A stretch of 64,000 nucleotides of DNA from Gammaproteobacteria bacterium (ex Lamellibrachia satsuma) (GCA_019623805.1 CP053680.1:4224423-4288422); one strand, 5' to 3'. Shown: positions 11,201-57,180, numbered from the stretch's first letter. A program made the numbers and translations. Notes: generated by a model not told the origin, from the sequence alone.

Positions 11201-11216
11201 AATAACAGGTCACCGC

Positions 11217-13179: not shown

Positions 13180-13219
13180 CAAGTTATACGGAGAATACTG
13201 ATTCATTCCGTATAACTTG
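13180..13219. repeat. Perfect 13-bp inverted repeat with 14-bp spacer
   Basis: CAAGTTATACGGA (13180-13192) ... TCCGTATAACTTG (13207-13219). Confidence 0.8.
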
Positions 13220-13455
13220 CAATCTGAATCAGTGAGTTATGATTGAGCAGAGCGAAGCGAATTATACCGCCCATTCTGGATTGCACTGTCCCATGTCATC
13301 TTCTTGAGCTCATTATTTGCGCTTTAACTTTTTTCTGTCTGATCGGTTGCAAGGTTGGCTGCTTGGGTGAATGCCTGCATAGTCCGTTGGCGAAGATTGA
13401 GCTTACCTCCGGTATTTTCCCAGACGAAATTGGCAGCAAACTTTGACACTACGGT

Positions 13456-18451: not shown

Positions 18452-19507
18452 ATGCACAGCAATGCACCTGAACTCTACCGACTGATAGAGACAGTTCTAC
18501 AGGAGAGACTGGACAATGGCACAACCCGCTGCCACCTCTGCCCCTGGCGTTGCAAGATCAGCCATGGCCAGCGCGGCTTTTGTCAAGCCCATGTCAATCG
18601 AAACGGCACCCTCTACAATCTCTCCTACGGCATCCTCTCCGCCATCCATGTCAATCCGATAGAAGAGAAACCGGTACGACATTACCGGCCGGGCACCCAG
18701 GTCCTGTCAGTCGGCAGCTACGGCTGCAGTTTTCGTTGTGGCGGCTGCCATAACCTGGATATCTCCTGGGGCGTGACCGCGCTGGAAGACCTGGCCCGGG
18801 GCGAATCAACAGCCGCCTATGTTCGGCCCGAAGAGCTGGTCGGTATCGCCCTTCGACAGGGGGTTCAGGGCATCGCCTTCACCTATTCCGAACCGGCAGT
18901 CTGGCTGGAATATGTAATCGACGTATGTGAGCAAGCCCATCAGGCTGGTCTCTACACCGTCTACGTCTCGAACAGTTTCGTCACAGAAGAGGCGCTGGAG
19001 CTGGTTGCACCCCATCTCGACGTGCTCTGTTCCGACGTCAAGAGCCTGCACGATGACTTTTACCATGCCATCTGCCCTACCGCCAAGGTCAGCGAGATCC
19101 TCGCCACGATCGAGAGGGCGCAGGAACTGGGTATCCACGTCGAGACCCGCTCCAACCTGATCCCTGGCAGAAACGATGACCCTGATGAGTTGTATCGAAT
19201 CGCCTGCTGGGTGCGGGAACACCTGGGCGAGACCAGCCCCTGGCATATCACCAAATTCTTTCCTGCCTACAAGCTCAGCCATCTGCCGGAAACCCCGAAT
19301 AAAACCCTGTGGTCAGCCTATGAACAGGCCCAGCGTGCCGGGCTGAAAAATGTCTATGTCTACCCTGACAAGGGCTGCGACTGCGCAACAGAGAATCGTC
19401 CTCTAGACGACTATCTGGAGGGAGATGTGGGCGATCTCCAGACTGTGAAAAAATGCAGCGCAAACTGCTGCGGTAGTGAAGGTGTATTGTTGAGAAAATA
19501 TGAGTGA
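18452..19507 (+). CDS. Radical SAM enzyme, AmmeMemoRadiSam (AmrS)-like, with Cys-rich tail
   Basis: CHLCPWRC...C N-terminal cluster, PIEEKP, CSFRCGGC (CxxxCxxC), TYSEP, FFPAYKL; tail GCDC...CSANCCG. Confidence 0.85.
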   Translation: MHSNAPELYRLIETVLQERLDNGTTRCHLCPWRCKISHGQRGFCQAHVNRNGTLYNLSYGILSAIHVNPIEEKPVRHYRPGTQVLSVGSYGCSFRCGGCHNLDISWGVTALEDLARGESTAAYVRPEELVGIALRQGVQGIAFTYSEPAVWLEYVIDVCEQAHQAGLYTVYVSNSFVTEEALELVAPHLDVLCSDVKSLHDDFYHAICPTAKVSEILATIERAQELGIHVETRSNLIPGRNDDPDELYRIACWVREHLGETSPWHITKFFPAYKLSHLPETPNKTLWSAYEQAQRAGLKNVYVYPDKGCDCATENRPLDDYLEGDVGDLQTVKKCSANCCGSEGVLLRKYE

Positions 19508-42086: not shown

Positions 42087-44870
42087 ATGTCGAAAACAAA
42101 GAAACGTAATAAAGACTCCCAAAGACCGGCCCGGCCATCAGGCTGGTCAACCAGTGACGCCGATGAGATCGAACGCCGTCGTTTGCGCGGTCTGAATGAA
42201 CCATCACGGATTGAATCCCAAGCACCGGACGATAATTTTTTCGGTATCTATCAGGTCGACTCCAACAACGAGCAAACTTACCGTGTAGAGATTCGCTCTC
42301 TTGCAAAACCGATCAACAGCTGCGACTGCCCCGACCACCGCATCAACGGCCTGGGCACCTGCAAGCATATCGAGGCAACACTGTACCGGCTCCAGTACAG
42401 GCGCAAGCGCGCTTTCCAGAATGCTGCTGCCAAAGGCAGTCCATACATCGAAATCTTTCTGGACCGGCGGGACCACCAAGTCAGGGTACGCTGGCCAGAA
42501 GTCGGACATCGCCGTTCCAAGGCTCGGGGCCTCATCACCCCCTTCTTTTCCAACGACAACATTCTGGCGGGTAATCCCCTCGACACACTGCCTGCCATGC
42601 AACGGGCAATTAACGCCTCTCATCCAGCTGTCAGGCGCAGCATCCGGTGGTCACATGAGTTGAATACCTGGCTCGAAACACTGGATCAGCACGCGCAACA
42701 GATCCGCAGCCGCCAACACTTCGAGACCGAGTTAGCAGCAGGAAATGCGAGCCTCGAACTTGTCAAGCACCCTCTCTATCCTTACCAGCAGGAGGGCATG
42801 CTGCACCTGGCATTCACCGGCCGAGCCCTGCTGGCGGATGAGATGGGGCTGGGCAAAACAGTGCAGGCAATCGCCGCCTGTGAGCTGCTGCGCCGTACCT
42901 CGGGCATCCGGCGAATATTGGTGATCTCCCCCGCTTCGCTCAAGGGCGAATGGGAGGAGCAGATCGACAAATTCACCAGCCTGCATTCAAGTATTATCCA
43001 GGGGACGCGCGCCAAGCGTCTGCGCCAATACGAAGACCCTGCATTCTTCTCACTTGCCAGCTATGAGCAGATGCGATCGGACGTAGAGGAAATAAACACC
43101 ACCCTGGCCCCGGATGTCATCATTCTGGATGAAGCCCAGCGCATCAAGAACTGGCAGACCAAGACGGCTATCTCAATCAAGCGCCTGAAAAGCCCCTACG
43201 CTTTTGTACTTACCGGCACACCGATAGAGAACCGCATTGACGAAATCTATTCGATCATTCAGTTCCTCGACCCACATATCTTCGGCCCCCTATTCCGATT
43301 CAACCGCGACTTCTACAAACTGGATGAGAAAGGGCGCGCCGTTGGCTACAGGAACCTCGACCAATTGCATAAGAGACTGCAGCCCATCATGCTGCGCCGA
43401 CGGAAAGAGGAAGTAGAGGGGCAGCTACCGGGTCGCACGATAAACACCTATTTCGTCCCCATGCACAAAGAGCAGGTGCTGCGCTACGGGGAGTACGAGT
43501 CGCGAGTGGCGCGTCTTGCCGCTACGGCCAAAAAGCGGCCACTGAAAAAAGATGAGATGGAACAGCTCCAACTTTATCTGGCCTGTATGCGTATGCTCTG
43601 TGACACACCCTATATTCTGGACCAGGATTGCCGCATTTCACCCAAGCTGAAGGAGCTTGGCAACATCCTCCAGGAAATCATGGCGGATGGCGACCACAAG
43701 ATCATTATCTTTTCCGAGTGGGAGCGTATGTTGCAGCTGGTTCGGGAGCAGGCCGAGGAGATGGGGCTGGGCTACGCCTTACATACCGGCAAGATTCCGC
43801 AGCCAAAACGCCGTGAAGAGATCCGACGTTTCAAGGACGATCCCGAGTGTCGACTATTCCTCTCCACCGACTCAGGCTCCGTAGGACTCAACCTGCAGGT
43901 GGCCGATGTAGTAATCAACCTGGATATGCCCTGGAATCCGGCCAAACTGGAACAGCGCATCGCCCGTGCCTGGCGAAAGCACCAGAAACGCCCGGTGCAG
44001 GTAATCAATCTTGTATCTGAAGGCTCCATCGAACACCGCATGCTCTCTCTGCTAGAGCAGAAACGTTCCCTGGCCGAAGGCGTGGTGGATGGTAAAGGCA
44101 AAAATGAAATGGACCTCCCCTCCGGCCGTGCCGCTTTTTTGGAGCGGATCGATACCCTGATTGCGGGTGAGTCAAAAGAACCACAAACGCCACCCGCCGA
44201 TCCGCTCGATCGTCTGCGGGACGATATTCTTTCGCAGTGGAGCCATCAACTGGAACTGATGGAACTGCATGGTAAAGGAGCACAGCAGACTCTGCTGGTG
44301 GTGGCAGACCGGCTGAATGACGCTCTGCAGAGTGCCCTTACCCGGCAACTGCAAGAACGATTCCCCGAGCAGACGCCGCTATTAAAACTGCTGGACCGAG
44401 ATGCCTTCGCGACCATCCAGCAACTGATCGAAGCCGGCATCTTGAACACCAACCGGGATACTGCCAGAACGGTCTACCGCGCCCCAGCCGCGGATAAACC
44501 AAAAGATGACGAACAATCAAAACGACTGACCGAGGCCCGCAACCGCCTGACCCAGAGTGAACATAAACGGCGAATGGCGAAAGTGCTCACCGAAGGCGGT
44601 TTTTCAACAGAGGCACTCGTCCCGATGCGTGATGCCGTTGAGACGGCCTTGCACGCCCTACTCTTTTGGCGGGGTCACGACACTGAAAAAACGCCAGCCC
44701 AGAAACTGATCGAGTCAACGCTGGTACAGGCGAACCTGCTGCCAGCCGAAACTTTGTCCCTAGTCGCCAATCTGCGGAAGGATCAACCAGAGATGGATGA
44801 AGCTCAAGCGGATAAACTTATCAGACAAAGCGACGAGCTTCTTTCGCAGGCGGCTTCTGCCTTGGCGTAG
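42087..44870 (+). CDS. SWIM Zn-finger-SNF2 helicase with HEPN-like C-terminal domain
   Basis: CDCPD...GTCKHI SWIM; LADEMGLGKT, ILDEAQRIKN, LTGTP, QRIARAWR; tail ...MRDAVETALHALL. Confidence 0.88.
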   Translation: MSKTKKRNKDSQRPARPSGWSTSDADEIERRRLRGLNEPSRIESQAPDDNFFGIYQVDSNNEQTYRVEIRSLAKPINSCDCPDHRINGLGTCKHIEATLYRLQYRRKRAFQNAAAKGSPYIEIFLDRRDHQVRVRWPEVGHRRSKARGLITPFFSNDNILAGNPLDTLPAMQRAINASHPAVRRSIRWSHELNTWLETLDQHAQQIRSRQHFETELAAGNASLELVKHPLYPYQQEGMLHLAFTGRALLADEMGLGKTVQAIAACELLRRTSGIRRILVISPASLKGEWEEQIDKFTSLHSSIIQGTRAKRLRQYEDPAFFSLASYEQMRSDVEEINTTLAPDVIILDEAQRIKNWQTKTAISIKRLKSPYAFVLTGTPIENRIDEIYSIIQFLDPHIFGPLFRFNRDFYKLDEKGRAVGYRNLDQLHKRLQPIMLRRRKEEVEGQLPGRTINTYFVPMHKEQVLRYGEYESRVARLAATAKKRPLKKDEMEQLQLYLACMRMLCDTPYILDQDCRISPKLKELGNILQEIMADGDHKIIIFSEWERMLQLVREQAEEMGLGYALHTGKIPQPKRREEIRRFKDDPECRLFLSTDSGSVGLNLQVADVVINLDMPWNPAKLEQRIARAWRKHQKRPVQVINLVSEGSIEHRMLSLLEQKRSLAEGVVDGKGKNEMDLPSGRAAFLERIDTLIAGESKEPQTPPADPLDRLRDDILSQWSHQLELMELHGKGAQQTLLVVADRLNDALQSALTRQLQERFPEQTPLLKLLDRDAFATIQQLIEAGILNTNRDTARTVYRAPAADKPKDDEQSKRLTEARNRLTQSEHKRRMAKVLTEGGFSTEALVPMRDAVETALHALLFWRGHDTEKTPAQKLIESTLVQANLLPAETLSLVANLRKDQPEMDEAQADKLIRQSDELLSQAASALA

Positions 44871-44913
44871 ACTAAACAAGACTGACACTCAGTATTTTCC
44901 GGAAAAAACACCC

Positions 44914-45246
44914 GTGGCAAAATCGAAACGACAGAGTTCTAACAAGGATCGGCAGTGGGTCTAGGCCAAACGACGCTTCCGCCTCAGCCGGGAGGATATC
45001 CGTATGGCCAGGGAACTGGGCCTCAACCCCCGCTCCCTGATCAAAAACATCCCTTCCCCGACTCAACAGTGGAAGTTACCGGTTAAACAGTGGATCCACG
45101 AACTCTATGAAGAGAAGATCGGAAAAACCCCTGTAATAAAATGCCATGGAACCCAGTCTTTCAAACGCATCAAGCATAATGCAAAAAACCCTGTTCCACT
45201 GAACGCCTCTGCGTTAACACCGGAGAGAAGTATCCCCCTCGTATGA
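44914..45246 (+). pseudogene. Small basic ORF (copy 2) with in-frame TAG at 44962
   Basis: GTG start, W-V-*-AKRR where copy 1 has W-A-E-AKR. Could still yield an 80-aa product from ATG 45004. Confidence 0.6.
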
Positions 45247-45391
45247 TATTCAAAGCAAGGCATGGAAAGAGTAGTTGAACTTTAACTCCTAAAAACTACA
45301 CCGATGACCACATCCGTTCTTTTTACCAGCTTGTATTACAATTCCTCGGGCTTTGTATATTTTTTCCTATGTAATGTAACATTCATACTTA

Positions 45392-46000
45392 ATGACTCAA
45401 ACGACACAGACAGACAAGGTGCTGGAACTGGTACAGAAGGAAGGGGTTCTGCGTCCCCGGGACCTCGAACCTTACGGCATCCCACGGATCTATCTCAGTA
45501 GACTCCACGCAGCTGGTAAGCTGCAACGAATCGGTCGGGGGCTCTACGTGCTTCCCGGTACCAACGTGAGCGAACACCGCTCTCTGGCCGAGGCCTGCAA
45601 ACGAGTACCGAAAGGAGTGATCTGCCTCCTGTCCGCTCTGCGTTTTCACGAGCTCACTACACAGTCGCCCTTCGAAGTCTGGCTGGCCATTGGCGAGAAG
45701 GCTTGGCGGCCGCGTGTGGAGTACCCTCCTCTACGTATTGTCCATTTCTCTTCGGCAGCGCTCAATGCTGGCGTGGAGGAGCACCGGATCGAGGGTGTAA
45801 TCGTGCCTGTATTCACACCAGCAAAGACTGTGGCCGATTGCTTCAAGTATCGAAATAAAATTGGGCTGGATGTTTCCATTGAGGCACTCAGGGAATGCTG
45901 GCGATCGCGGCGCTGCACCATGGATGACCTCTGGCAATACGCTAAGGTTTGCCGTGTTCAGAACGTCATGCGGCCCTATCTGGAATCGCTTGCAACATGA
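45392..46000 (+). CDS. Type IV TA antitoxin, AbiEi family (copy 2)
   Basis: Near-identical to 35165-35773. Confidence 0.9.
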   Translation: MTQTTQTDKVLELVQKEGVLRPRDLEPYGIPRIYLSRLHAAGKLQRIGRGLYVLPGTNVSEHRSLAEACKRVPKGVICLLSALRFHELTTQSPFEVWLAIGEKAWRPRVEYPPLRIVHFSSAALNAGVEEHRIEGVIVPVFTPAKTVADCFKYRNKIGLDVSIEALRECWRSRRCTMDDLWQYAKVCRVQNVMRPYLESLAT

Positions 46001-46923
46001 TGGGTAAACGGGGGAGAAACACCGCGGCCTCGGTGCGGGACCGGTTGCTCGAACTGGCAAGGCAGCGAGGTGAGGAGTTCCAGTTGATCCTGACCCGCTA
46101 TGGGCTGGAACGATTTTTGTACCGGCTGAGCCAATCGGAGTACCGCAATCGCTTCATACTGAAGGGCGCAATGCTTTTCACCCTGTGGGACGACCAGATG
46201 CATCGCCCAACCCGCGATGTAGACTTCCTCGGATTCGGCGACAGCGGAGAAGCGGCACTACGAGAAATCTTTCGCAATTTATGCGACATACCTGTTGAGG
46301 ATGACGGTTTGGTATTCCTTGCTGACAGCGTTAGTGTTGAATCGATCCGCGATGCGACTGAATACGGTGGCACACGCGTGGTACTGCTCGGTGAGCTGGC
46401 CGGTGCCCGCATCCCAATCCAGGCTGATATTGGGTTCGGCGACGCCGTAACGCCTGAACCGGAAGAGGTTGAGTATCCCACACTACTGGAATATCCGACG
46501 CCTCGCTTGAGGGTCTACCCGCGGGAAACTGTGGTGGCCGAAAAATACCAAGTTCTGGTCAACCTGGGTATGGCAAACAGCCGGATGAAGGACTTCTATG
46601 ACCTTTGGATAATTGCTCATCAGTTTGAGTTTGACGGGCTCACGTTATCCGAAGCCGTCCGTAACACCTTTGCACGTCGCCAAACGCCCTTACCGAAACA
46701 AACACCATCCGGCCTTAGTTCAACATTCTACGGTGACAAGCAGAAAAACCAGCAGTGGAATGCGTTTCTAAGTAAAGGAATACTGCTTTCCACCTCCACT
46801 CCCCCATCAATTGAGGAGGTCTGCTATCTGCTTGAAAAATTTCTTATGCAGCCAACACAGGCTCTGGAAGATAACCAAACCTTCACCGGGCAGTGGCAGC
46901 CCGGTGGCCCGTGGAAAATCTAA
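45997..46923 (+). CDS. Type IV TA toxin, AbiEii nucleotidyltransferase (copy 2)
   Basis: Near-identical to copy 1; catalytic motifs intact. Confidence 0.9.
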   Translation: MMGKRGRNTAASVRDRLLELARQRGEEFQLILTRYGLERFLYRLSQSEYRNRFILKGAMLFTLWDDQMHRPTRDVDFLGFGDSGEAALREIFRNLCDIPVEDDGLVFLADSVSVESIRDATEYGGTRVVLLGELAGARIPIQADIGFGDAVTPEPEEVEYPTLLEYPTPRLRVYPRETVVAEKYQVLVNLGMANSRMKDFYDLWIIAHQFEFDGLTLSEAVRNTFARRQTPLPKQTPSGLSSTFYGDKQKNQQWNAFLSKGILLSTSTPPSIEEVCYLLEKFLMQPTQALEDNQTFTGQWQPGGPWKI

Positions 46924-46955
46924 GTTGTGTTGGAGCGACCGACTGAACATCTGAA

Positions 46956-49421
46956 TTGGACCTGACTATGGAGATTTCTGATCGCGAAGTCATTCTTCGA
47001 AAAATCGCCGAAGTCGAACAGCAAATTACCCTTCTCCGAAAGCAGCAAGAAGAATCTGAGACAACACTCAAATCACTGAGGGAATGCCTGGCACTAGGTG
47101 ACGACGAAACAACGCACAAACCAAAACATCCAGCAGAAGTTCCCGTTTTTACAACGACAAGCCTAACACCAGACGAGAAGGTCACCCTTTTTCTCCGCCT
47201 CTTTCAAGGCCGAGAGGATGTGTATCCAAAATTGTGGCAGAACCAAAAAACGGGCAAGAAGGGCTATTCGCCTGCCTGTTCGAATGAGTGGATTCGCGGA
47301 GTATGTGAGAAGCCCCGGGTAAAATGCGGTGAGTGCTCCAATCAGGCCTTCCTGCCGGTAACAACCGAGGTGATTCTGGACCATCTCCAGGGACGTCACA
47401 TCATTGGTGTATACCCTATGCTGAAGGACGATACCTGCCGGTTTATCGCAGCCGATTTTGACAAAGCAGCTTGGCGTGAAGACGTTATGGCTTTTACGGA
47501 AACCTGTCGGCGAGCAGACGTTCCTTATGCCATTGAGCGTTCCCGTTCTGGGAATGGTGCACACGTCTGGTTCTTTTTCAGCAATCTGGTTTCCGCAGCG
47601 ACAGCAAGGAAGATGGGCAGCTATTTTATTACGGAAACCATGGCCAGACGACATCAACTCAGCATGGCATCCTATGACCGGCTTTTCCCAAACCAGGATA
47701 CCTTACCCAATGGTGGCTTCGGCAATCTCATCGCTCTCCCGCTTCAATATCACCCGCGACAGAAAGACAATACCCTCTTTCTGAATGACGAGCTGGAGCC
47801 ATTTCCAGATCAGTGGGAATTCCTCGCATCGCTGGTTCCGATTCAGGTAGAGAAGGTTGAAAAGATCGCCATGGAAGCCACAACCTGTGGCCAGGTGACT
47901 GGTCTCCAGATTTCCATTACCGAGGAAGATGATGTTGATGCCAGCCCGTGGTTGAGGCCGCCCTCCCGAAAACCAAAGCACATTCCGATCACCGACCCCG
48001 TTCCACATCAGGTGCGAGGTATTTTATCCCAACGTTTTTACATCGAGAAAGCCGGCCTACCGTCGCCTTTGATCAATCAGATTCAACGGTTTGCCGCATT
48101 CCAGAATCCAGAATTCTACAAGAAACAAAATCTTCGACTTTCCACGGCACTGACTCCCCGCGTAATCTCCTGCGCTGAAGATCATGGAAAGCACATCAGT
48201 CTGCCGCGAGGGTGTCTCGACGACGTACGGGCATTGCTCCAGGAATACAAAAGCCACCTTGAGGTGGAAGATCTGAGAATCCTCGGCGATCCCGTGGATG
48301 TTAGCTTCTTCGGTGAATTGACCGATGCCCAGCACCATGCAGCGAAAGCCATACTCGAGCACGACAACGGCGTGATCGTGGCGCCACCTGGTTTTGGGAA
48401 AACCGTCCTTGGAACCTACCTGATCGCTGCGCGAATGTGCAGCACCTTGATCCTGGTGCATAGACAGCCGCTGTTGGAACAATGGAGATCACAGATCGGC
48501 ATCTTTCTTGACCGTGATGCAAAATCAATCGGTCAGATTGGTGGCGGGAAACGCAAGCTGACAGGGCAAGTCGACGTGGCCATGATTCAGAGCCTGTCCC
48601 GAAAAGACACCATGGACGACATCGTGGCCAAGTATGGGCAGGTTATCATCGATGAATGCCACCATCTGCCAGCTGTTTCGTTCGAACGAGTCCTCTCCGA
48701 GATAAAGGCACAATACGTTGTCGGGCTGACCGCTACACCGCAGCGCCGCGACGGACACCAGCCCATCACCCATATGCAGATCGGACCGATTCGATTCAGG
48801 GTCGATCCACGTAGTCAGTTAGCGCAACGCCCCTTCGAACATCGACTTGTAGTTAGGGAAACCGGCTTTGGGCCACCCATGCAGGCATCCGATATAACCA
48901 TTCAGGAACTCTACAGCCTGTTGATAGCCGATGAAAAGCGCAACGAGCGGATCATTGATGATGTGCTGCTGGCTATGGAAGAAGGTCGATCACCGATTCT
49001 GCTGACGGAACGCAAAAACCACCTTGAGGATCTCCATCAACGGTTAAAGGGCTTTGTCCGGCATATCGTCGTTCTGCAGGGAGGACAATCAGCAAAAGAA
49101 CGGCGCAAAGTCCAGGAACAACTCGCTTCTATTCCAATGGAAGAGGAGCGCCTCCTGCTGGCAACCGGAAGGTACATCGGAGAAGGATTCGACGATGCAC
49201 GCCTGGATACCCTGTTTCTTTCGCTACCGGTTTCGTGGAAAGGCACACTCGTGCAATATGCTGGGCGACTGCACAGGTTGCATCCTGGTAAGCGCGAAGT
49301 GCGTATTGTCGACTACGTTGATGGCAAGGTGCCAATGCTCGCAAGAATGTATGAAAAACGACGTGTCGGCTATCGCTTAATGGGATACCGAGAAGAGGAT
49401 AGCAGGACTTTCCTCGATTAG
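46956..49421 (+). CDS. AEP-primase-like (TOTE-type) domain fused to SF2 DEAD/DEAH (ResIII-like) helicase, intact
   Basis: CSNEW...C...C.EC Zn region; AADFD, ERSRSGNGAHVW, GNLIALP primase-like motifs; APPGFGKT, DECHH, LTATP, QYAGRLHR. Confidence 0.8.
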   Translation: MDLTMEISDREVILRKIAEVEQQITLLRKQQEESETTLKSLRECLALGDDETTHKPKHPAEVPVFTTTSLTPDEKVTLFLRLFQGREDVYPKLWQNQKTGKKGYSPACSNEWIRGVCEKPRVKCGECSNQAFLPVTTEVILDHLQGRHIIGVYPMLKDDTCRFIAADFDKAAWREDVMAFTETCRRADVPYAIERSRSGNGAHVWFFFSNLVSAATARKMGSYFITETMARRHQLSMASYDRLFPNQDTLPNGGFGNLIALPLQYHPRQKDNTLFLNDELEPFPDQWEFLASLVPIQVEKVEKIAMEATTCGQVTGLQISITEEDDVDASPWLRPPSRKPKHIPITDPVPHQVRGILSQRFYIEKAGLPSPLINQIQRFAAFQNPEFYKKQNLRLSTALTPRVISCAEDHGKHISLPRGCLDDVRALLQEYKSHLEVEDLRILGDPVDVSFFGELTDAQHHAAKAILEHDNGVIVAPPGFGKTVLGTYLIAARMCSTLILVHRQPLLEQWRSQIGIFLDRDAKSIGQIGGGKRKLTGQVDVAMIQSLSRKDTMDDIVAKYGQVIIDECHHLPAVSFERVLSEIKAQYVVGLTATPQRRDGHQPITHMQIGPIRFRVDPRSQLAQRPFEHRLVVRETGFGPPMQASDITIQELYSLLIADEKRNERIIDDVLLAMEEGRSPILLTERKNHLEDLHQRLKGFVRHIVVLQGGQSAKERRKVQEQLASIPMEEERLLLATGRYIGEGFDDARLDTLFLSLPVSWKGTLVQYAGRLHRLHPGKREVRIVDYVDGKVPMLARMYEKRRVGYRLMGYREEDSRTFLD

Positions 49422-50051: not shown

Positions 50052-50489
50052 TCAGTAACGAAAACCCTCACGCACCGGCAGGGTAATAGTAACCAGGCTC
50101 TCACTTTCAACCCGTTTCATATTCTCCACATCTGCATCCCTGGGAATCGAAATACGTTGACTGAAACTGCTCGAACTGCGACTGTAACTGTAGCTACCCC
50201 GCTCATTGCTCCGTTCTGCCTCCTGGCTGGTATCATTACTGATCACCAGGAATCTTCCCTTCACATTCACCTGAACCGCTTGGGGATCGATGTTTTCGGT
50301 ATGGATCCTTACCACATACCCCGCTTCACTCCTGCTTTTCTCGACTCTCAACCGTTGAAAATGGCGAAAACTGGACGTTTGGTAAGGTGATCCCATGTAT
50401 CCCGGATATCCATAGAGCGGCTGGGCATTCGCCAGGAAGGCAAGACTCAGCAACACAGCCAAACTCAACATTGTCAGTAACCGTTTCAT
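50052..50489 (-). CDS. Hsp20/alpha-crystallin-domain protein with Sec signal peptide
   Basis: MKRLLTMLSLAVLLSLAFLANA; GYVVRI...VQVNVKGRFLVIS...FSQRISIPRDAD...LVTITLP. Confidence 0.75.
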   Translation of the reverse strand: MKRLLTMLSLAVLLSLAFLANAQPLYGYPGYMGSPYQTSSFRHFQRLRVEKSRSEAGYVVRIHTENIDPQAVQVNVKGRFLVISNDTSQEAERSNERGSYSYSRSSSSFSQRISIPRDADVENMKRVESESLVTITLPVREGFRY

Positions 50490-50492
50490 CTC

Positions 50493-52043
50493 TTACTCCT
50501 TTGCAGCCTCATGGCTAGAGCCAAAAGGTGCTGCATACTTCTCACTGTAGAACACTTCAAACTCTGCCCCATCTTTCCAGGCATCAGCGGACAATCCCGC
50601 CTTTCTCGCCAGATAGGTCAACGTCTGCTCCCGATTCCAGCCCTGCTCCACCGCAACCTCCGGAAGAAAAACTGCACTGCGCCCCTGTTTTTTAAAAATA
50701 ATACCCTGTTGGCCCACTTTGAAAGCTTCGAAGTGGGCAATGGGACGCGGAGGTGTCAATACACTCACCTCGATCTCAAGCCCCTCCAACTCTTCCGGGG
50801 TTACCGGCGGAAAGCGGCGATCCCGTACCGCTGCATTGCCGCCATTATTCAACACTGCCTGGAAGAGTGGGTCGCGTGGTCGAATATAGCCAATACAACC
50901 ACGCAACATACCGTCCTTTTTAAGGGTCACAAACGCCCCTGAAGGTCGCTCAAGCTCCGGTGGCAGATTGCGCAGCAACTGCTCACCTTCATGCTTGTCA
51001 TCCAGTACCGCACGCCTGATTCCGGCCACTGCAATCTGGTGCAATCTCTTGAGCTGCTCACTGCCCAGACGCCTGACTGAACCCTGGCTGCCAGCGATTG
51101 CTGTCGGAACATTCACTGCAATCACCACGTAGCTGACCGAATTTTCATAGTTGCCTGTCAGTTGGCCACTGGTCTTATAGGCCAGTGGCTCCAGTTCCGC
51201 CGAGACTGGCAACATGTGCAACAGCAGTGCAATGGGACGAAACCCACAGATGGTGATTCCGGTGCGCTGTTGATAGTCAAGAAACCCCTTTGCATCCCTC
51301 GCCACTATCCGCTCAATCGCCCCCCCATCAAGTTGCTGGATATTTGCAGGCGTCTCATCATTCAACGGAAACGGCGTATAGCCAAACCGTTTGCCATAGT
51401 GGGCGAAGTCGCTGGAAACCACCACCAGAGTCTGCTCATCCGCCAGTTCACGCAGCAGTTTTGCTGCCTGCGGGTAGGCCTCATCGTCCATCTGCCCCAC
51501 AAGTACCGGCACCAGTTTCCAACCCGGCTCCAGTACACGCTGCAGTAACGGCAGTTCAATTTCGATGCTGTGTTCCCGTTTGTGTGCCTTTGCATCTGCA
51601 CTGACAAGAGGCGATTTGCGCAACTGCTGTACTGCAACATGGTCAAGCGGCACTGAGCCTAGCGGAGTCTGGTAGGCAGCTACATCTGCAATAGAGAGTC
51701 CTTTGAAGGCGCTGTAGTGGCTGGGCGCCAGCAACAGAACCCGTTTGTAATCCATGCCTCGCACCAACTTGAAGGCTTTGGCTGCGGTTGGCCCGCTGTA
51801 CATATAACCGGCATGGGGAACGATCAGCGCCCGGAGAGGATTTTTCGCCTTGGACTGGGCATCGGAAGGATCATCCAGAAAGCCGTCCACAACCTTGGAC
51901 AGCTGTAGCGGATTCACCGGATACCAGGAGCCTGCAAGCACACTCTCCCTGATCTTTTCACCCGCAAGGGACTGGGATATCAGCAACAGCCCCGCCAGCA
52001 AAAGCGCGGAAATTACCCATCGCTGAAATCGACCGAGTCTCAT
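50493..52043 (-). CDS. Memo (AmrB)-AMMECR1 (AmrA) fusion with N-terminal signal peptide
   Basis: AGSWYP, PHAGYMYSG, EHSIEIELP, SSDFAHYG, TICG (Memo); GAFVTL, LRGCIG, DRRFPPV, FLPEVA (AMMECR1). Confidence 0.9.
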   Translation of the reverse strand: MRLGRFQRWVISALLLAGLLLISQSLAGEKIRESVLAGSWYPVNPLQLSKVVDGFLDDPSDAQSKAKNPLRALIVPHAGYMYSGPTAAKAFKLVRGMDYKRVLLLAPSHYSAFKGLSIADVAAYQTPLGSVPLDHVAVQQLRKSPLVSADAKAHKREHSIEIELPLLQRVLEPGWKLVPVLVGQMDDEAYPQAAKLLRELADEQTLVVVSSDFAHYGKRFGYTPFPLNDETPANIQQLDGGAIERIVARDAKGFLDYQQRTGITICGFRPIALLLHMLPVSAELEPLAYKTSGQLTGNYENSVSYVVIAVNVPTAIAGSQGSVRRLGSEQLKRLHQIAVAGIRRAVLDDKHEGEQLLRNLPPELERPSGAFVTLKKDGMLRGCIGYIRPRDPLFQAVLNNGGNAAVRDRRFPPVTPEELEGLEIEVSVLTPPRPIAHFEAFKVGQQGIIFKKQGRSAVFLPEVAVEQGWNREQTLTYLARKAGLSADAWKDGAEFEVFYSEKYAAPFGSSHEAAKE

Positions 52044-52054
52044 TCTTCTCTCCT

Positions 52055-52231
52055 CTATTCGTCCTCTCCCCTGGGCCGATAGTAGTCCGCTTCACGCATG
52101 GCCATTTTCTCCTCCCGCGTGCTTCCTACCGCCCAAGGGAGGGCCATCACTCCTGCAATCATACCGCCCAGTACTCCCAGAAAACGCCTGCGAGAGTGCC
52201 CGTTGCGTCTCCACACCTCCCTCATCCTCAT
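52055..52231 (-). CDS. 58-aa twin-arginine (Tat) signal peptide protein, absent from the ORF track
   Basis: MRMREVWRRNGHSRRRFLGVLGGMIAGVMALPWAVGSTREEKMAMREADYYRPRGEDE*; TAATG overlap with the radical SAM stop; fills the gap to the RBS of the next gene. Confidence 0.75.
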   Translation of the reverse strand: MRMREVWRRNGHSRRRFLGVLGGMIAGVMALPWAVGSTREEKMAMREADYYRPRGEDE

Positions 52232-53208
52232 TACCAGACTCCCGGAACCGGCTCATTGCAGGTCGGACAACGACCGTCGCTGGTCAGTTTGTATTCACTG
52301 ATCATGAAACCCTCTCTCTTGATCAATAGAGTGCCATCGACCGGACAGTAGGTTGAATTACCTTTATGCCCTGAGATATTGCCGATATAAACATATTCCA
52401 ATCCCGCATCCATCGCCTCCTGACGCGCACGATCCAGGGTCTCTCCCGGCGTCGGCGGCAGGTTGCGCATCCGGTACATGGGATGAAAGCGGCTGAAATG
52501 GAGGGGAGTGCCTTCTCCCAGCTCACGCCTGATCCACTTCGCCATGCGCCGGATCATGGAGAGATCATCGTTCAGCGTCGGGATAAGCAGGTTGGTCACC
52601 TCCAGCCAGACCTCCTCCTCCCGAAACGTCACCAGGGCATCCAATACCGGCTGCAGCGTTGCCCCGGTTGTTTTGCGGTAGAAGCCGTCGTCGAAGGCCT
52701 TCAGATCGGTGTTAGTGGCGTCGATCACTTTACAGAGACGGCGTAGAGGCTCAGTGTTGATATAGCCGGCAGTGATGAACACATTCTTCATCCCGGCCTC
52801 ATGAGCCAGGATACTGCTGTCATAGACATATTCGTAGAAGACCACCGGATCGGAGTAAGTATAGGCGATGCTTTCGCAGCCCTGATCTCTGGCCAGGTCG
52901 ATGAGATCCACGGGGTCAGCGTTGAAGATCTCCTCTATCTCCTCCCCACCGCTTTGGGAAAGTTGCCAGTTCTGGCAGTTAAGGCAGTGCAGGTTGCAGC
53001 CTGCCGTCGCAATGGAAAACACGGGTGAACCGGGATGAAAATGGTAGAGCGGTTTCTTCTCCATCGGGTCGATATGCATCGCGGAGGGCCGTCCGTAGGT
53101 GGAAGCCAGCAGTTTGCCACCAACATTGACCCGCACCCGGCAGTCACCAGCCCCTCCTTCGGGGATCACACACTTGCGCGGACAGAGTTCGCAAACCACC
53201 TCTCTCAT
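52231..53208 (-). CDS. amrS: AmmeMemoRadiSam radical SAM enzyme
   Basis: CELCPRKC...C, DPMEKKPLYHFHPG, GCNLHCLNCQN, TYSDP, FSRFHP. ATG 53208 follows a GGAGGA RBS with ATGA overlap. Confidence 0.92.
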   Translation of the reverse strand: MREVVCELCPRKCVIPEGGAGDCRVRVNVGGKLLASTYGRPSAMHIDPMEKKPLYHFHPGSPVFSIATAGCNLHCLNCQNWQLSQSGGEEIEEIFNADPVDLIDLARDQGCESIAYTYSDPVVFYEYVYDSSILAHEAGMKNVFITAGYINTEPLRRLCKVIDATNTDLKAFDDGFYRKTTGATLQPVLDALVTFREEEVWLEVTNLLIPTLNDDLSMIRRMAKWIRRELGEGTPLHFSRFHPMYRMRNLPPTPGETLDRARQEAMDAGLEYVYIGNISGHKGNSTYCPVDGTLLIKREGFMISEYKLTSDGRCPTCNEPVPGVW

Positions 53209-53471
53209 GGCGTTCCTCCGTGCTTGGGTAGCTGCAACTCCGCTGGTTTGGCGACATGGAACCACTCAGCTTCATGAGCACTCAACTTGCCGCTATCCAG
53301 TCTTTCTTGGAAGATTTCCATATCGATACGCCGCCAGCTTGAGCCAGTCATCTCCCCCTCTTGCTGCCCGACCAAAAACAACGCGATCACGACCAACGTC
53401 AGGCTCAACAGCCCGATGAGTCTGTAATCACTGCTATGCCAATGCCGGATCGCTTGTAACATGGAAATCAT
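53205..53471 (-). CDS. Small single-TM protein ending in LSAHEAEWF motif
   Basis: 88 aa, TM segment LIGLLSLTLVVIALFLVG; translationally coupled to amrS. Confidence 0.7.
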   Translation of the reverse strand: MISMLQAIRHWHSSDYRLIGLLSLTLVVIALFLVGQQEGEMTGSSWRRIDMEIFQERLDSGKLSAHEAEWFHVAKPAELQLPKHGGTP

Positions 53472-53541: not shown

Positions 53542-56500
53542 CTATCTCTCCTTCCCAAATCCACGGGGCTTGAGATGGGTATCCCTACCGGTAAGACAGC
53601 GGTTACAACGGATACAGTCGATGTCGAAGGTTTCCCGCACCCCGAGGTCACAATGGTTGAAACGGCGCTCCGGCGCCAGTCGCTGCAACAGGGCAAATTT
53701 ATTACCGAAGGCCAAAAACGCCCCCAGCGGGCAGAGATAACGACACCAAAAGCGGTAGTGAAAAAGCGCCCCCAGCATGACCAACAGCAGTATTCCAAGC
53801 ATCCATTCTGGCCAGTGCTCACCGAATACATACTGCATCGGATCGAATAGCGCCCAGGATGAATCACCGCTACCCCATACCACAATCAACAGCAAGCCGA
53901 GCAGCAGGTACTTCAAAAACCGCAGCCGGGAATCCAACGGGCGGCTGGCATAGCTGCGCAAGCCCAGCCGATGCCCGATTCGGGAGACAAACTCCTGCAA
54001 TGCCCCGAACGGACAGAGATAGCCGCACCAAACAGGACCAAACATCACTGTCGTAACAAGCGCAAATCCTATCAACAGCCAGTGTTGCGGATTATCGGCA
54101 ACAGAGGCGAAAAAACCCAGGCCCAAGTTGACCAGATCCACCTCAGTCACCTGACTGTTGAGCCAAAACCCAAGAACCATCAAGGCAGCGAACTGATAGA
54201 TTAATCTGCCGTTTTCACTGCCTGAAAGATAAACGGGAAAAAACAGCAGCAATAGTCCCACAGTCACCATAATCGCAGGAGAGTACCAAGCAGATTGTGC
54301 CTCCTCTTGTGATACGACTTGAGCAAAACTTTTGCCGAACGCGGTTTGCCCTGCCACATGAGCCGCCTGGTTGATCGATGCCAATGCCGCCTCACTGCTG
54401 ACGGTTGCTCCGGTGAGGGCATCAACACGGGAAAGTGATAATGATTCAGCCGAGAGATCTGTCCCTGCAAGACTGGTAAGCCAACCATCGATGCCGGAAA
54501 TATAGGAGGGGGTCTCATTGGAATCGATATAACGCACACCCCGTAATCGCCCCATTGCATCCACGGAGAGCAACAGATTGAGCGGTCCTGCAAATCCCAA
54601 CACATCCGGCGCTGCTGCCATTGAAGCCAGAGAGACAGTATCTGCCTGACCATCTGGAGCCGAGCCAATATAGTGAATGAATGGCATTTCCTTCAGTTCA
54701 AATACACTTGATTCACTGACTGCTGCCAGCAATTGATCGCTGAAGTGGAGTTGAGGCGCAGGTTTTATGACCTGCTGATACTGTGCCCAGGCAAGACTCA
54801 GCAACACGAGAAAAACCAGCCCCCATCCCAGATTGGGCCAGGGAAAGGCGTGTCTGCCCCTGAGGTGTAGTGGCGACATTCCTTGTGGCACTAATGCTGT
54901 AAACAGCAAAGGTAGAAGCATCAATAGGGTGAATATCGCCAGCAGATAGCTGCTCCATTCAATACCAAGCAGTGGCACCATCAAAGCCCCTGTCACCAAT
55001 CCGCCAACAGCACCACCCAGATTATCCGCCGCCTGGTTAATGCCACTACTACGCACCACCACCGCCTGCTCCAACTCGGTGATCTTCACTCCCAGCGGAA
55101 ATCCTGTACCCACCAGCAGGCCCAACAGCAGCGAGATCAGGGGGTAGCCCCACTCCTGCCAGCCAATCGCCAACTGACCAAGCCAATTCAACAGATGAGG
55201 TAGCACAACCAGAACGGCGGTCACCAGTATCAGCACGATCCCCAGGCGGAGGGCAGGACGATCGATACGAGCCAACAGACTGCCCGCCCCTGCCCCTAAC
55301 GCAAGACCTGTCATAAAAAGCCCATTGAGCAGGGCCACCCGCTCAAACATAAAGCCGACATGGGACTGGTAACTGAACAGCACGGCAAGCTGGGCGGCCA
55401 TCGCGACCAGTCCGAGTACGAAAAGGATTTGCATGGATACCTTGCGCAGACGACTGCTGCGTTGACCAGCCTCAAGTGAGGCGCGGAGCAGCCATAGCAG
55501 AAGAAACAGCAACATCGGCAGCAGATAAGCCCAGATTCCCACGCCGCGCAGTTGCTCCATCCAGTCGGCAAAGCCAGAGGCACTGAACTGGCCCCATAAC
55601 AGCATGTTCAGGTAGTAGGTAACAGGCTGTGCATCGCTGTTGCGCTCGCTACCGGGCTGCTCCAGCTGATCCCGCACAAAACGCACCTCATCATCCGGCA
55701 GGATCGTGTAGAAGACTTTCGCCGGAAACCGATGATCTTCGAGCGGAATATCAAGGTAACGCGATTCCAGCTCCGATGCCGATTCGGTCACCCGTCCGGC
55801 AGTGGTGGAAGCACAGAAGAGATAGTTGTCACCGGGTGCGACCGCGATATTTGGCAGCACCTCCCGCAGCGTGCGAAAGACCGATCCACTGAAACTGCGA
55901 ACTGTGCGCCCGAGATAGTTGGATGCACCGCTCACGCGGGTGCAAAACACCCCGTCCGGCCCGAGTTGATGCCGCACACCCTGATAGAACTCCGAGGTGA
56001 AATAGCGGTTGCTGTAGGCGCTGGAAGGCGTCGCATTAAGCACCAGCACCAGATTGTAGTTTTCGGCCGCCGACAGGCTGTTGATATAGCGTCGACCATC
56101 CATGAAGTGAAGTTGGACACGGGGATCGGCCAGTGCCTTGCGGCTCTGCTCCGGCAGAAAGGGCATGACTTTCCGGAAGGCCTGCTCATCCTCCTCCACC
56201 ACGTCGATTCGGGTGACCGGATAGTGCAACAGCTCCACCGCTAGGCCACTGGCAAATCCGCCGAGCAGTAGTATCCGTTTTGCACCTGCCGCCTGGGACA
56301 TAAGATAGGCAGCCTGCTGACGAATCTCTAGCGGCAAGGGAAAACTCTCTGTTACTTGGCCGTTATTCACCAGCGTCGTCTGTTCGCCAAAGCCCGCTAT
56401 AGCCAAATGCCCATAGCGAGTCTCCGTCGTATCGAACAACTCCAGGCCCGGCTGCAAGGTGGAAAAACGCAGGGTCTCCATATGCCGGTCGAGCCAGGGA

Positions 56501-57180
56501 CTGACGACAGGTAAAGCAATGATTACACCAAGAACTGCCAGCAGGATAGCTGGCCGACGTGATCCGGCGTTGCAGCGTTTTAATTTTAACGCTGTAACCG
56601 CCAGCAACAGGGTAGTCACCCCGAGCGTACCGGTGATTCCCAACCACTGTATAAAGACAAAGGTGAAGAGCACCCCACCCAGCAGAGCCCCCAGTGCATC
56701 TGCAATGTAGAGCCGGGATATATCCCTGACGTTTTCCTGATTCTCCCCACCACCGGCAAAATCCCGCAAGGCCTTGCAGGCCAGCGGAAAGGCGAAACCC
56801 AACAGCAGGCCGCCGGGGGCAACGATCAGAAAGAGGGAGAGAAAGAGCTCCCCCAGTGGTACGAATTCGCTGGCGGAGACATCCAACAGCAGACGCACAG
56901 TACGCAGCATCAACACCTGCAGGATCAGTACCAAAGGTAGCAGTAGCAACAGACGGCTGATCCAGGGTAGAGGATCCTGCACCATAGGCCGTTCCCGCCA
57001 ACGCACCACCAGCAGGGAACCCAGCGCCAACCAGAAGAGCCAGCTGCCAAAGAAGGCGCCCAGACTGACTTCGTTGCCGTAGAAGACCACCAGCCCCTCC
57101 CTGATCAGAAGAGCCTGCACGATCTGGGAATAGGCGCCCAGAATCAGGATGGCGAAAAAGACCCTGCGGCTGGTTGGCAT
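53542..57180 (-). CDS. Polytopic membrane fusion: spermidine-synthase-like SAM-fold, FMN-binding domain and NosR/NapH-like 4Fe-4S module
   Basis: Q-ALLIRE...FYGNE TM block; ILLLGG...IDVVEED...DGRRYI; second TM block; GFAGPL...ETPSY...DALTGATVSS; CGYLCPFG, CRYLCPLG, CIRCNRC. Confidence 0.85.
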   Translation of the reverse strand: MPTSRRVFFAILILGAYSQIVQALLIREGLVVFYGNEVSLGAFFGSWLFWLALGSLLVVRWRERPMVQDPLPWISRLLLLLPLVLILQVLMLRTVRLLLDVSASEFVPLGELFLSLFLIVAPGGLLLGFAFPLACKALRDFAGGGENQENVRDISRLYIADALGALLGGVLFTFVFIQWLGITGTLGVTTLLLAVTALKLKRCNAGSRRPAILLAVLGVIIALPVVSPWLDRHMETLRFSTLQPGLELFDTTETRYGHLAIAGFGEQTTLVNNGQVTESFPLPLEIRQQAAYLMSQAAGAKRILLLGGFASGLAVELLHYPVTRIDVVEEDEQAFRKVMPFLPEQSRKALADPRVQLHFMDGRRYINSLSAAENYNLVLVLNATPSSAYSNRYFTSEFYQGVRHQLGPDGVFCTRVSGASNYLGRTVRSFSGSVFRTLREVLPNIAVAPGDNYLFCASTTAGRVTESASELESRYLDIPLEDHRFPAKVFYTILPDDEVRFVRDQLEQPGSERNSDAQPVTYYLNMLLWGQFSASGFADWMEQLRGVGIWAYLLPMLLFLLLWLLRASLEAGQRSSRLRKVSMQILFVLGLVAMAAQLAVLFSYQSHVGFMFERVALLNGLFMTGLALGAGAGSLLARIDRPALRLGIVLILVTAVLVVLPHLLNWLGQLAIGWQEWGYPLISLLLGLLVGTGFPLGVKITELEQAVVVRSSGINQAADNLGGAVGGLVTGALMVPLLGIEWSSYLLAIFTLLMLLPLLFTALVPQGMSPLHLRGRHAFPWPNLGWGLVFLVLLSLAWAQYQQVIKPAPQLHFSDQLLAAVSESSVFELKEMPFIHYIGSAPDGQADTVSLASMAAAPDVLGFAGPLNLLLSVDAMGRLRGVRYIDSNETPSYISGIDGWLTSLAGTDLSAESLSLSRVDALTGATVSSEAALASINQAAHVAGQTAFGKSFAQVVSQEEAQSAWYSPAIMVTVGLLLLFFPVYLSGSENGRLIYQFAALMVLGFWLNSQVTEVDLVNLGLGFFASVADNPQHWLLIGFALVTTVMFGPVWCGYLCPFGALQEFVSRIGHRLGLRSYASRPLDSRLRFLKYLLLGLLLIVVWGSGDSSWALFDPMQYVFGEHWPEWMLGILLLVMLGALFHYRFWCRYLCPLGAFLAFGNKFALLQRLAPERRFNHCDLGVRETFDIDCIRCNRCLTGRDTHLKPRGFGKER

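Follow-up and report, generated by a model that had tools for sequence, protein, structure and literature searches.

The gene under study encodes P0001, a protein of 1212 amino acids from Gammaproteobacteria bacterium (ex Lamellibrachia satsuma), and lies on the minus strand at 53542..57180 of a 64,000-nucleotide stretch of the genome (CP053680.1:4224423-4288422 in GCA_019623805.1), hereafter called the window. It is a single intact open reading frame (ORF) from ATG to stop with three Pfam domains, Spermine_synth (PF01564; residues 297–415; 61.6 bits, cut-off 22.9), FMN_bind (PF04205; residues 862–940; 38.5 bits, cut-off 22), and Fer4_5, which occurs twice (50.3 bits, cut-off 22), and it has more than 290 full-length homologues. 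The NCBIfam models for SpeE, NapH, NosR, and RnfG also match P0001, each far under its cut-off. From the N-terminus, and with all coordinates on the minus strand, the predicted architecture begins with a six-helix half resembling the major facilitator superfamily (MFS) and an extra transmembrane helix, TM7, with the N-terminus in the cytoplasm (residues 1–234; 56479..57180). A domain of the spermidine synthase (SpeE) type follows, with a class I S-adenosylmethionine (SAM)-binding fold that is predicted to be periplasmic and catalytically disabled (residues 235–540; 55561..56478), and then an extra helix, TM8, a second MFS-like six-helix half, and TM15 heading outward (residues 541–806; 54763..55560). 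The remainder consists of a putative periplasmic FMN_bind domain, which also gives RnfG/NqrC-type matches (residues 807–955; 54316..54762), and a NapH/NosR-like five-helix Fe–S module with a probably cytoplasmic C-terminus (residues 956–1212; 53545..54315). Residues 1–806 and 807–1212 are referred to as Part A and Part B, respectively.

The fusion is a genuine gene. The host genome is a single 4.32 Mb contig and the same architecture is found in more than 40 genomes, so that an assembly artefact, a possibility raised in a preceding sequence-only reading of this DNA, is excluded by contiguity and by recurrence across genomes and phyla. The ORF and all the motifs quoted in that reading were located on the minus strand as described, including ILLLGG (residues 303–308), VEED (328–331), NATPSS (382–387), and CIRCNRC (1189–1195). 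An AlphaFold2 model computed with 59 relatives as input was confident, with a predicted local distance difference test score (pLDDT) of 86 and a predicted TM-score (pTM) of 0.83. The domains had been read correctly from the sequence, namely a SpeE-like fold without catalytic function, a flavinylation site of the ApbE type, and a module of the NosR/NapH kind with CX3CP and Fe–S motifs.

In a Foldseek search against the PDB, about 270–290 columns of the SpeE-like domain were aligned to solved SpeE structures (1UIR, 3ANX, 3O4F, and 1JQ3) with a target-normalised TM-score of about 0.7, in keeping with the SpeE fold of an N-terminal β-hairpin domain and a Rossmann-type domain; all of the top 50 matches were SpeE, and the membrane part gave no match. 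P0001 was aligned to two solved SpeE structures, and the positions were tabulated over 59 fused relatives, to which the residue counts given below refer unless the stand-alone relatives of Part A are named. The glycine loop (G307-G308-x-x-x-G312) is kept, the ribose-binding acidic residue after strand β2 is Glu329 in 47 of 59, Asp331, which comes after it, is invariant, and the adenine-binding Asp361-Gly-Arg363 is kept in 59, 56, and 58 relatives, respectively. The adenine-binding Asp and the glycine loop are near-invariant also in the stand-alone family, in which the ribose-binding position is Glu in 60 of 94 representatives. The residues for aminopropyl transfer have a different fate. The loop GGGDG reads GGFASG, with its Asp replaced by Ala310 (Ala in 53/59), and Asp is at most rare at this position among the 94 stand-alone relatives. 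The first Asp of the catalytic DxxDP motif, which lies after strand β4, aligns to Leu381 or Asn382 and the second to Thr384 or Pro385; Asp occurs at position 382 in 16 and at position 384 in 21 of the 59 relatives and is conserved at neither, so the replacement of DxxDP claimed from the sequence is real. Stand-alone relatives mostly keep the acidic residue that binds the amine, the second of this motif (position 376; Asp in 64 and Glu in 18 of the 94). The scores of the SpeE equivalog models are low: 104.8 for PRK03612 (cut-off 472), 70.5 for PRK00811 (260), and 51.6 for TIGR00417 (249.55).

Judged by these residues, the SpeE-like domain is not a spermidine synthase. The adenine and ribose residues are kept and the aminopropyl-transfer aspartates are lost, which points to ligand binding rather than polyamine synthesis. 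Two motifs specific to this domain, T254-R-Y-G-H258 and S390-N-R-Y-F-T395, are invariant, and exactly two cysteines, Cys413 and Cys456, both invariant, are present in the domain in 58 of 59 relatives (four in the remaining one); a conserved ligand-binding or otherwise functional domain, and not a decayed one, is therefore indicated. Some cytoplasmic eukaryotic SpeE proteins carry Cys near the positions equivalent to Cys413 and Cys456, and the pair is suggestive, but no proof, of a periplasmic disulfide. The Asp of GGGDG forms a salt bridge with the amine of decarboxylated SAM (dcSAM) and is thought to repel the carboxylate of SAM, and a D103I substitution abolishes spermidine synthase activity and permits the use of SAM (PMC3725402). 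Putrescine N-methyltransferase, which evolved from spermidine synthase, likewise has a SpeE fold with a non-acidic residue at the GGGDG Asp, a change that in this enzyme swaps dcSAM for SAM (PMC3725402). Unlike P0001, however, it keeps the catalytic and amine-binding aspartates, which are lost or variable here, and it is a soluble cytoplasmic protein, whereas the domain of P0001 is embedded in a membrane protein.

The topology of Part A was examined by counting Lys plus Arg (K/R) per loop over the 59 fused relatives and the 94 stand-alone representatives, which are about 30% identical. With the hydrophobic stretches of 38–40 residues read as helical hairpins, the fused family shows a strict alternation of K/R-rich loops (2.1–4.3 each) and K/R-poor loops (0–1.1, with one at 2.0), and when the SpeE-like domain is placed outside the totals per protein are 22.3 inside versus 4.8 outside. 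The stand-alone family has the same pattern, its totals being about 20.6 inside versus 1.0 outside, and the distribution of charge fits 6+1 / 1+6 helices. A single-crossing model that places the domain inside gives 13.8 in versus 12.1 out (fused) and 8.9 versus 12.7 (stand-alone). Homology to MFS halves comes from relatives and from a weak internal repeat. The second bundle of the full-length homologue P0199 matches Pfam MFS_1 at positions 2–181 with 47.4 bits (cut-off 33.4), equivalent to one six-helix half with both ends in the cytoplasm; bundles 1 and 2 are weakly similar to each other by hhalign (E = 1.3e-4, probability 53%, 68 columns); and precomputed PF07690 annotation is attached to several relatives. 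P0001 reaches 39.4 bits with NF037959 ('fused MFS/spermidine synthase'; cut-off 40), over residues 71–223 only, and is homologous to proteins carrying a name of this type with E-values of about 1e-80 to 1e-105.

Since the charge bias fits an outward-facing domain and no other arrangement examined, and since homology to MFS halves is seen by way of relatives, the SpeE-like domain very probably lies in the periplasm between TM7 and TM8 of a putative 14-helix MFS protein. MFS transporters of the 14-helix DHA2 type have two extra helices between their six-helix halves. In the simplest picture P0001 would share with them the two halves with cytoplasmic ends and the extra central TM7 and TM8, and would differ in that these helices bear a domain of about 300 residues on the outer face. 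TM15 would then lead to a periplasmic FMN domain, followed by five NapH-type helices with the CX3CP motifs and the C-terminal Cys4 set on the cytoplasmic side.

Part B contains the motif DALTGATVSS (residues 920–929; 54394..54423), in which Asp920 and Ala925 are invariant and Thr926 is replaced, by Ser, in a single relative (58/59). This near-invariance, together with the two ApbE genes of the host genome, bears out the ApbE-type flavinylation motif noticed in the sequence, and Thr926 is the predicted site of covalent flavin mononucleotide (FMN) attachment. The FMN_bind domain is free of Cys in 55 of 59 relatives. In the Fe–S module, a first CX3CP motif (CGYLCP, residues 1052–1057; 54010..54027), at the predicted cytoplasmic end of a transmembrane helix, a second (CRYLCP, residues 1146–1151; 53728..53745), and a C-terminal set of Cys1177, Cys1189, Cys1192, and Cys1195 (53596..53652) are all invariant; the eight cysteines are enough for two clusters, and the C-terminal four suffice for only one [4Fe-4S]. 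The NCBIfam scores are 58.3 bits for NosR (cut-off 1000) and 55.5 for NapH (cut-off 213). In NosR, RnfG, and NqrC the FMN_bind domain is periplasmic, as is required for flavinylation, and the FMN_bind domain of P0001 should likewise be periplasmic because flavinylation occurs there. Flavinylated FMN_bind domains in general sit extracytosolically, and the class of flavinylated NapH-like transmembrane electron-transfer systems is defined operationally by a PF12801 membrane protein, an FMN_bind domain that is part of it or encoded in its gene cluster, and a genomic ApbE (PMC8238504). P0001 has PF12801 and PF04205 in one chain, and ApbE in its genome. From these features we strongly infer that Part B is an outward electron conduit. 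The quinol-to-periplasm direction suggested by the sequence-only reading was not upheld: the entry point would be the cytoplasmic Cys4 cluster, and quinol would be far too oxidising if the acceptor is the cluster of a radical SAM enzyme.

Directly downstream of the fusion gene, on the same strand and in one operon, all three families of the AmmeMemoRadiSam system (TIGR04335 AmrA/AMMECR1, TIGR04336 AmrB/Memo, and TIGR04337 AmrS) are encoded, a context that had been missed in reading P0001 by itself. The order is the fusion gene, an 88-residue ORF, AmrS, a 58-residue ORF, and Memo-AMMECR1. The 88-residue protein (53205..53471) is a predicted membrane anchor with its N-terminus inside and an outward tail ending in HEAEWFH; it has orthologues in 17 related loci and no Pfam match. 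The radical SAM enzyme AmrS (52231..53208; TIGR04337, 398 bits, cut-off 220) is leaderless, begins with MREVVCELCP, matches its profile from position 10, and lacks the first ~16 residues of canonical AmrS. The 58-residue mini-protein (52055..52231) carries a putative twin-arginine (Tat) signal, SRRRFLG, and later READYY, and has counterparts in three other loci (L051, L056, and L127). The last gene (50493..52043) encodes a Memo-AMMECR1 fusion (TIGR04336 and TIGR04335) with a Sec-type signal peptide, and a signal peptide is found in its orthologues wherever the true start is readable, in about half of those listed, the other N-termini being long high-GC read-throughs. Both micro-proteins end in EA-[DE]-[WY]-[YF], a look-alike of the first strand that is missing from the AmrS of the window. 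A canonical copy of the pair elsewhere in the host genome (L070) consists of a 360-residue AmrS, which begins MKTVVPTKYWHALEDGRVQCDLCP and possesses its own N-terminal strand, and an adjoining signal-less Memo of 271 residues. A scan for promoters and terminators gave nothing exceeding chance.

Several further observations concern these genes and their surroundings. The tail of the 88-residue protein has in its orthologues (L050–L067) a conserved GWRxIDxxALxRRIxSGELxxREAxWYH, which by eye resembles the first strand-helix-strand of a rhodanese-like domain and gives no Pfam match. A gene for a 145-residue Hsp20/alpha-crystallin protein (50052-50489, minus strand; Pfam, 33.3 bits) lies directly 3' of Memo-AMMECR1, a position not so occupied in three distant operons. 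The canonical AmrS/Memo pair (G000:C1:3999380-4003426) directly follows a long ORF that looks by eye like a HypF-type hydrogenase maturation carbamoyltransferase. The window contains another, more divergent AmrS-like gene, the third of its kind (~18503-19360, plus strand; G000:C1:4242925-4243782; TIGR04337, 229 bits, just above the cut-off), without Memo or AMMECR1 neighbours. Just beyond the operon, at 42087-49421 on the plus strand, lies a run of conflict-type genes, which as judged from their translations encode a 927-residue helicase of the SNF2 family whose N-terminus bears a SWIM-like zinc motif, an AbiEi/AbiEii-like pair, and an 821-residue primase-like/SF2 helicase protein.

Of 301 sampled genomes of the same order, 44 carry the full-length architecture, at 48–94% identity; they represent 22 of 73 genera, and all 7 other sampled genomes of the genus have the gene. 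Identity to the proteins of Escarpia and Lamellibrachia symbionts is 91–94%, the host lineage being that of chemosynthetic siboglinid tubeworm symbionts, and the three-domain architecture is also found at 24–37% identity in proteins named from Thermodesulfobacteriota, Planctomycetota, Hydrogenedentes, and Chromatiales. Only one other full-length match was obtained in a class-wide search of 400 Gammaproteobacteria genomes, and the gene is thus patchy outside its order. The five-gene order is repeated in three homologues of 55–60% identity with unrelated flanks, the small ORFs having ~84–88 and ~58–63 residues. Among 22 distinct fusion loci examined by tblastn, AmrS is adjacent in 18, Memo-AMMECR1 alone is near in one, and neither is found within 7 kb in three. 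Co-occurrence across genomes is tighter still: of the 43 other genomes with the fusion, 41 have an orthologue of the fused Memo-AMMECR1 (E<1e-90), versus ~1 of 257 fusion-free genomes of the order, and both exceptions among the carriers are fragmented or partly covered assemblies. A separate Memo paralogue of ~270 residues occurs in almost every genome of the order sample. Two genes interrupted near the junction of the halves were considered as natural domain splits and rejected: in G518:C7:80290-83914 the break falls at residue 815/816, just before the FMN_bind region, and in G600:C3:263038-266642 (L069) at query residues 868–877, inside it; in both genomes the two parts differ in reading frame and either adjoin or overlap each other, and are probably the result of frameshifts or assembly errors. 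In one 7.7 Mb genome (L065, G463:C1), an insert of ~3.3 kb (10636-13994) including a 558-residue transposase-like ORF lies between the hub gene and the 88-residue ORF, the rest of the operon being intact.

Part A also exists as a protein of its own. When residues 1–830 were searched against 1.84 billion representatives, 2475 clusters were obtained at E<1e-30, and the best 150 of these 50%-identity clusters included 39 fused proteins (at least 1150 residues) and 94 stand-alone proteins (720–860 residues), the homology of the latter spanning residues ~8–760, namely the helix bundle, the SpeE-like domain, and the second helix bundle. Six stand-alone contexts inspected have genes for Tat-leader AmrS, signal-peptide Memo-AMMECR1, DUF362, and NapH-like proteins nearby. 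Eighty metagenome loci of the stand-alone family were collected, and the 61 with at least 5 kb of flank were counted: AmrS is encoded in 39, mostly directly adjacent and with more than 300 bits, Memo-AMMECR1 in 25, DUF362 in 26, and NapH-like proteins in 8. The AmrS proteins beside stand-alone Part A have a twin-arginine leader in 28 of 35 cases, e.g., SRRGFLK (L076) and SSRREFI (L075), and an N-terminal extension of at least 35 residues in 33 of 35. The two leaderless exceptions are L102, which has a fused hub of 1189 residues, and L127, an unfused copy of the operon with a separate 449-residue FMN_bind/Fer4_5 protein, a 65-residue anchor ending in WQEAKYWKKL, leaderless AmrS, and a 57-residue Tat mini-protein (NRRDFLK...KEAKYF), a set convergent with a gene for a 758-residue stand-alone Part A.

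Two sub-architectures emerge from these loci. In Type I, AmrS is fused to a Tat leader and accompanied by DUF362, by stand-alone Part A, and in some cases by a NapH/NapG-like polyferredoxin. In Type II, AmrS is leaderless and comes with the two micro-proteins and with the FMN_bind-NapH protein, which is either separate, as in L127, or fused to Part A, as in the window. Because both halves of P0001 are separate genes of the same cluster in other lineages, the fusion joins two partners and not unrelated functions. The statement of the sequence-only reading that the halves normally occur separately thus holds insofar as they are separate genes (L127, L121, and others), but those genes share one cluster. 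DUF362 recurs in the Type I clusters (26/61 loci; e.g., L074 3086-5606 and L075 10363-11148), at least one copy having a twin-arginine leader, FTRRHFIK (L074), and it is absent wherever FMN_bind is present, as if the two were alternative periplasmic electron carriers. In L076, a gene of the purine-nucleoside phosphorylase family (11030-11863; PRK08202, 314 bits), a relative of 5'-methylthioadenosine (MTA) phosphorylase, adjoins Tat-leader AmrS and stand-alone Part A; this single case could bear on 5'-deoxyadenosine salvage.

In comparison with known systems, P0001 most resembles the flavinylated NapH-like systems, including NosR of N2O reductase and PceC/RdhC of organohalide respiration (Meheust et al. 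2021, PMC8238504), in which an extracytosolic FMN_bind domain with D-x-x-(S/T)-G-A-T precedes a polytopic module that has two CX3CP motifs and a cytoplasmic Fe–S site, ApbE is encoded in the genome, and the whole forms a modular wire to a periplasmic redox partner. It differs from NosR and NapH in that its C-terminus has a single Cys4 cluster where they have two of the ferredoxin type, and from the NapH-like systems in that the conduit is fused behind a 15-helix transporter/SpeE-like module and that the partner appears to be an exported AmmeMemoRadiSam set, and not NosZ, a dehalogenase, NirS, or ExaA; the neighbouring genes are not nosZ or napAB. The main text of that study mentions none of spermidine synthase, Memo, AMMECR1, or radical SAM (PMC8238504). 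Like the NF037959 and PRK03612 proteins, P0001 has a SpeE fold after a polytopic domain at the N-terminus, and residues 8–760 are homologous from end to end to proteins of ~770 residues so annotated; unlike them, it scores below both cut-offs, has lost the catalytic residues, and possesses a second MFS half after the SpeE-like domain as well as the added FMN_bind-NapH part. Unlike the canonical AmmeMemoRadiSam system, which is cytoplasmic and has no membrane component, the set in the window has a signal-peptide Memo-AMMECR1, a truncated AmrS, two micro-proteins, and the 1212-residue hub. No publication came to light on the fused MFS/SpeE family, on its link with AmmeMemoRadiSam, on a function of AmmeMemoRadiSam, or on a periplasmic or Tat-dependent radical SAM enzyme. 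The linkage of AMMECR1, radical SAM, and dioxygenase-like proteins has been noted before, with RNA base modification proposed as their role (Balaji and Aravind, PMC2034487); an apparently periplasmic branch fits that proposal poorly, at least for the branch itself. P0001 is most suitably classed with the flavinylated NapH-like conduits, as a new variant that is fused to an MFS/SpeE-like partner and appears to be dedicated to exported AmmeMemoRadiSam.

Taking together the architecture, the lost catalytic residues, and the linkage in operon and co-occurrence, P0001 is probably the membrane service hub of an exported AmmeMemoRadiSam variant, in which two partners that are separate elsewhere have been fused. 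A radical SAM enzyme needs a low-potential electron and SAM, and the two halves of P0001 may attend to one need each. In Part B, the cytoplasmic Cys4 [4Fe-4S] cluster and the two CX3CP motifs would carry electrons across the membrane to a periplasmic FMN, attached covalently to Thr926 by ApbE, and the electron acceptors would be the exported AmrS and/or the signal-peptide Memo-AMMECR1. The FMN domain might in this way stand in for flavodoxin, the electron donor of radical SAM enzymes in the cytoplasm. AmrS is apparently exported by means of the detached Tat-signal mini-protein and may be held at the membrane by the 88-residue anchor. Part A would be a 14-helix MFS-type transporter with a periplasmic ligand-binding SpeE-like domain; it combines a transporter with an outward SAM-binding fold that lacks exactly the dcSAM-specific residues, and is for this reason a candidate supplier of SAM or remover of 5'-deoxyadenosine, a compound that closely resembles MTA, the product of SpeE itself. 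That Part A brings SAM to the exported enzyme, or clears 5'-deoxyadenosine or methionine from it, is quite conceivable, though somewhat short of an even bet. Extracytoplasmic radical SAM chemistry in its full form, with a Tat-exported enzyme, electrons from NapH and FMN, and an MFS/SpeE-like half that exports SAM or re-imports 5'-deoxyadenosine or methionine, is put forward only tentatively, as a rather doubtful possibility. The proposal of the sequence-only reading that an adenosyl-ligand unit (for SAM, MTA, or 5'-deoxyadenosine) is coupled to a transmembrane conduit is compatible with the kept nucleoside residues and the NapH-like module; what it observed was confirmed, and what it concluded was supported in part.

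Several points weigh against assigning P0001 to the service of an exported radical SAM enzyme through an MFS half. Pfam MFS_1 (PF07690) has no match at E<=0.01 in P0001 or in any of 20 close family members, and we know of no MFS transporter for SAM. The ribose-binding Glu329 is not universal in either family. AmrS is not seen in the available flank of 22 of the 61 stand-alone loci, and the metagenome loci are not phylogenetically independent of one another. The three fusion loci with no partner within 7 kb (L064, L068, and L069) belong with these points, and their genomes hold a Memo-AMMECR1 orthologue elsewhere. Finally, AlphaFold2/DSSP draws helices 148–200 and 708–753 as continuous, and as single crossings they would put the SpeE-like domain in the cytoplasm.

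This last point underlies one alternative, in which each long helix makes a single crossing of the membrane, the SpeE-like domain senses or loads SAM in the cytoplasm or docks AmrS before export, and only the FMN domain is periplasmic. With the continuous helices the count becomes even, placing the domain on the side of the N-terminus, where SAM is present, and in the AlphaFold2 model of stand-alone Part A the second long helix (706–757) is likewise unbroken. The same model, however, breaks the first long helix at 168–169; charged or polar residues (Q/E178, R184, E/D/R741, and R/Y745) lie mid-way in the supposed single helices; and AlphaFold/DSSP merges helices 5 and 6 of each six-helix half, so that the helix counts are ambiguous and AlphaFold2 could not settle the side faced by the domain. 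A cytoplasmic placement would moreover leave the K/R-rich loops of the whole second bundle outside and conflicts with the homology to six-helix MFS halves, and we consider it decidedly unlikely. A working membrane-bound spermidine or polyamine synthase, fused by chance to a redox module, would account for the match to Spermine_synth, for the fold of the SpeE type, and for the name 'spermidine synthase' given in databases. It is rejected on the residues (Ala for the GGGDG Asp, Leu or Asn for the catalytic Asp, and no conserved Asp in DxxDP) and on the equivalog scores far below the cut-offs; a change of the D103I type alone abolishes spermidine synthase activity (PMC3725402), and the probable periplasmic location would offer no dcSAM, which makes this reading most improbable.

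The remaining alternatives concern what is moved and in which direction. Part A may export or present a substrate, or take up a product, such as an amine, a polyamine-like metabolite, or an envelope precursor, that the SpeE-like domain binds while Part B moves electrons. MFS proteins mostly move small metabolites, SpeE folds bind an amine substrate besides the nucleoside, the amine-binding acidic residue is kept in the stand-alone family, and the invariant TRYGH and SNRYFT border the part of the fold in which SpeE has its substrate pocket and gate. This acidic residue is, however, not conserved in the fused subfamily (Asp in 21/59, Thr in P0001), the nucleoside-binding residues are better conserved than the amine site, and no candidate substrate genes recur in the operon; we regard this possibility as unlikely, although somewhat less so than the cytoplasmic placement of the domain. 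Electrons may instead flow inward, with Memo-AMMECR1 oxidising a periplasmic substrate and FMN/NapH draining the electrons to the quinone pool or a cytoplasmic acceptor, an arrangement that leaves room for the other functions of Part A. It counts for this direction that the fold of Memo is of the dioxygenase type and that Memo is reportedly a metal redox protein. NapH-like flavinylated modules have also been proposed to be bidirectional, serving reductases or oxidases (PMC8238504). Against it, the radical SAM enzyme of the same operon needs a low-potential reductant, the sole cytoplasmic element is one Cys4 cluster without an obvious quinone site, and no cytochrome or quinone-reactive partner recurs in the operon, so that inward flow has about the same slim chance as the cytoplasmic placement. 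The membrane service hub, with outward electron transfer to exported AmrS and/or Memo-AMMECR1, remains the favoured interpretation.

The conservation of MEMO1 and AMMECR1 extends from archaea to humans, and both are linked to human disease, without an agreed biochemistry. For nearly twenty years the prokaryotic Memo and AMMECR1 proteins have been known as partners of a radical SAM enzyme, and no function has been assigned to the partnership (PMC2034487). The hub points to a whole branch of AmmeMemoRadiSam that appears to work at the outer face of the membrane, names the services that the system may want, electrons and an adenosyl-binding fold, and offers experimental handles in its flavinylation site, in its transporter, and in a soluble domain against which ligands could be screened. 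Radical SAM enzymes are usually assumed to stay in the cytoplasm, with SAM and reductant at their disposal, and this assumption would be broken if the enzyme studied here really acts in the periplasm. Should P0001 both handle SAM and supply electrons, it would be the first machine to provide a radical SAM enzyme with its cofactors outside the cytoplasm, and no MFS protein before it would have been one that handles SAM.

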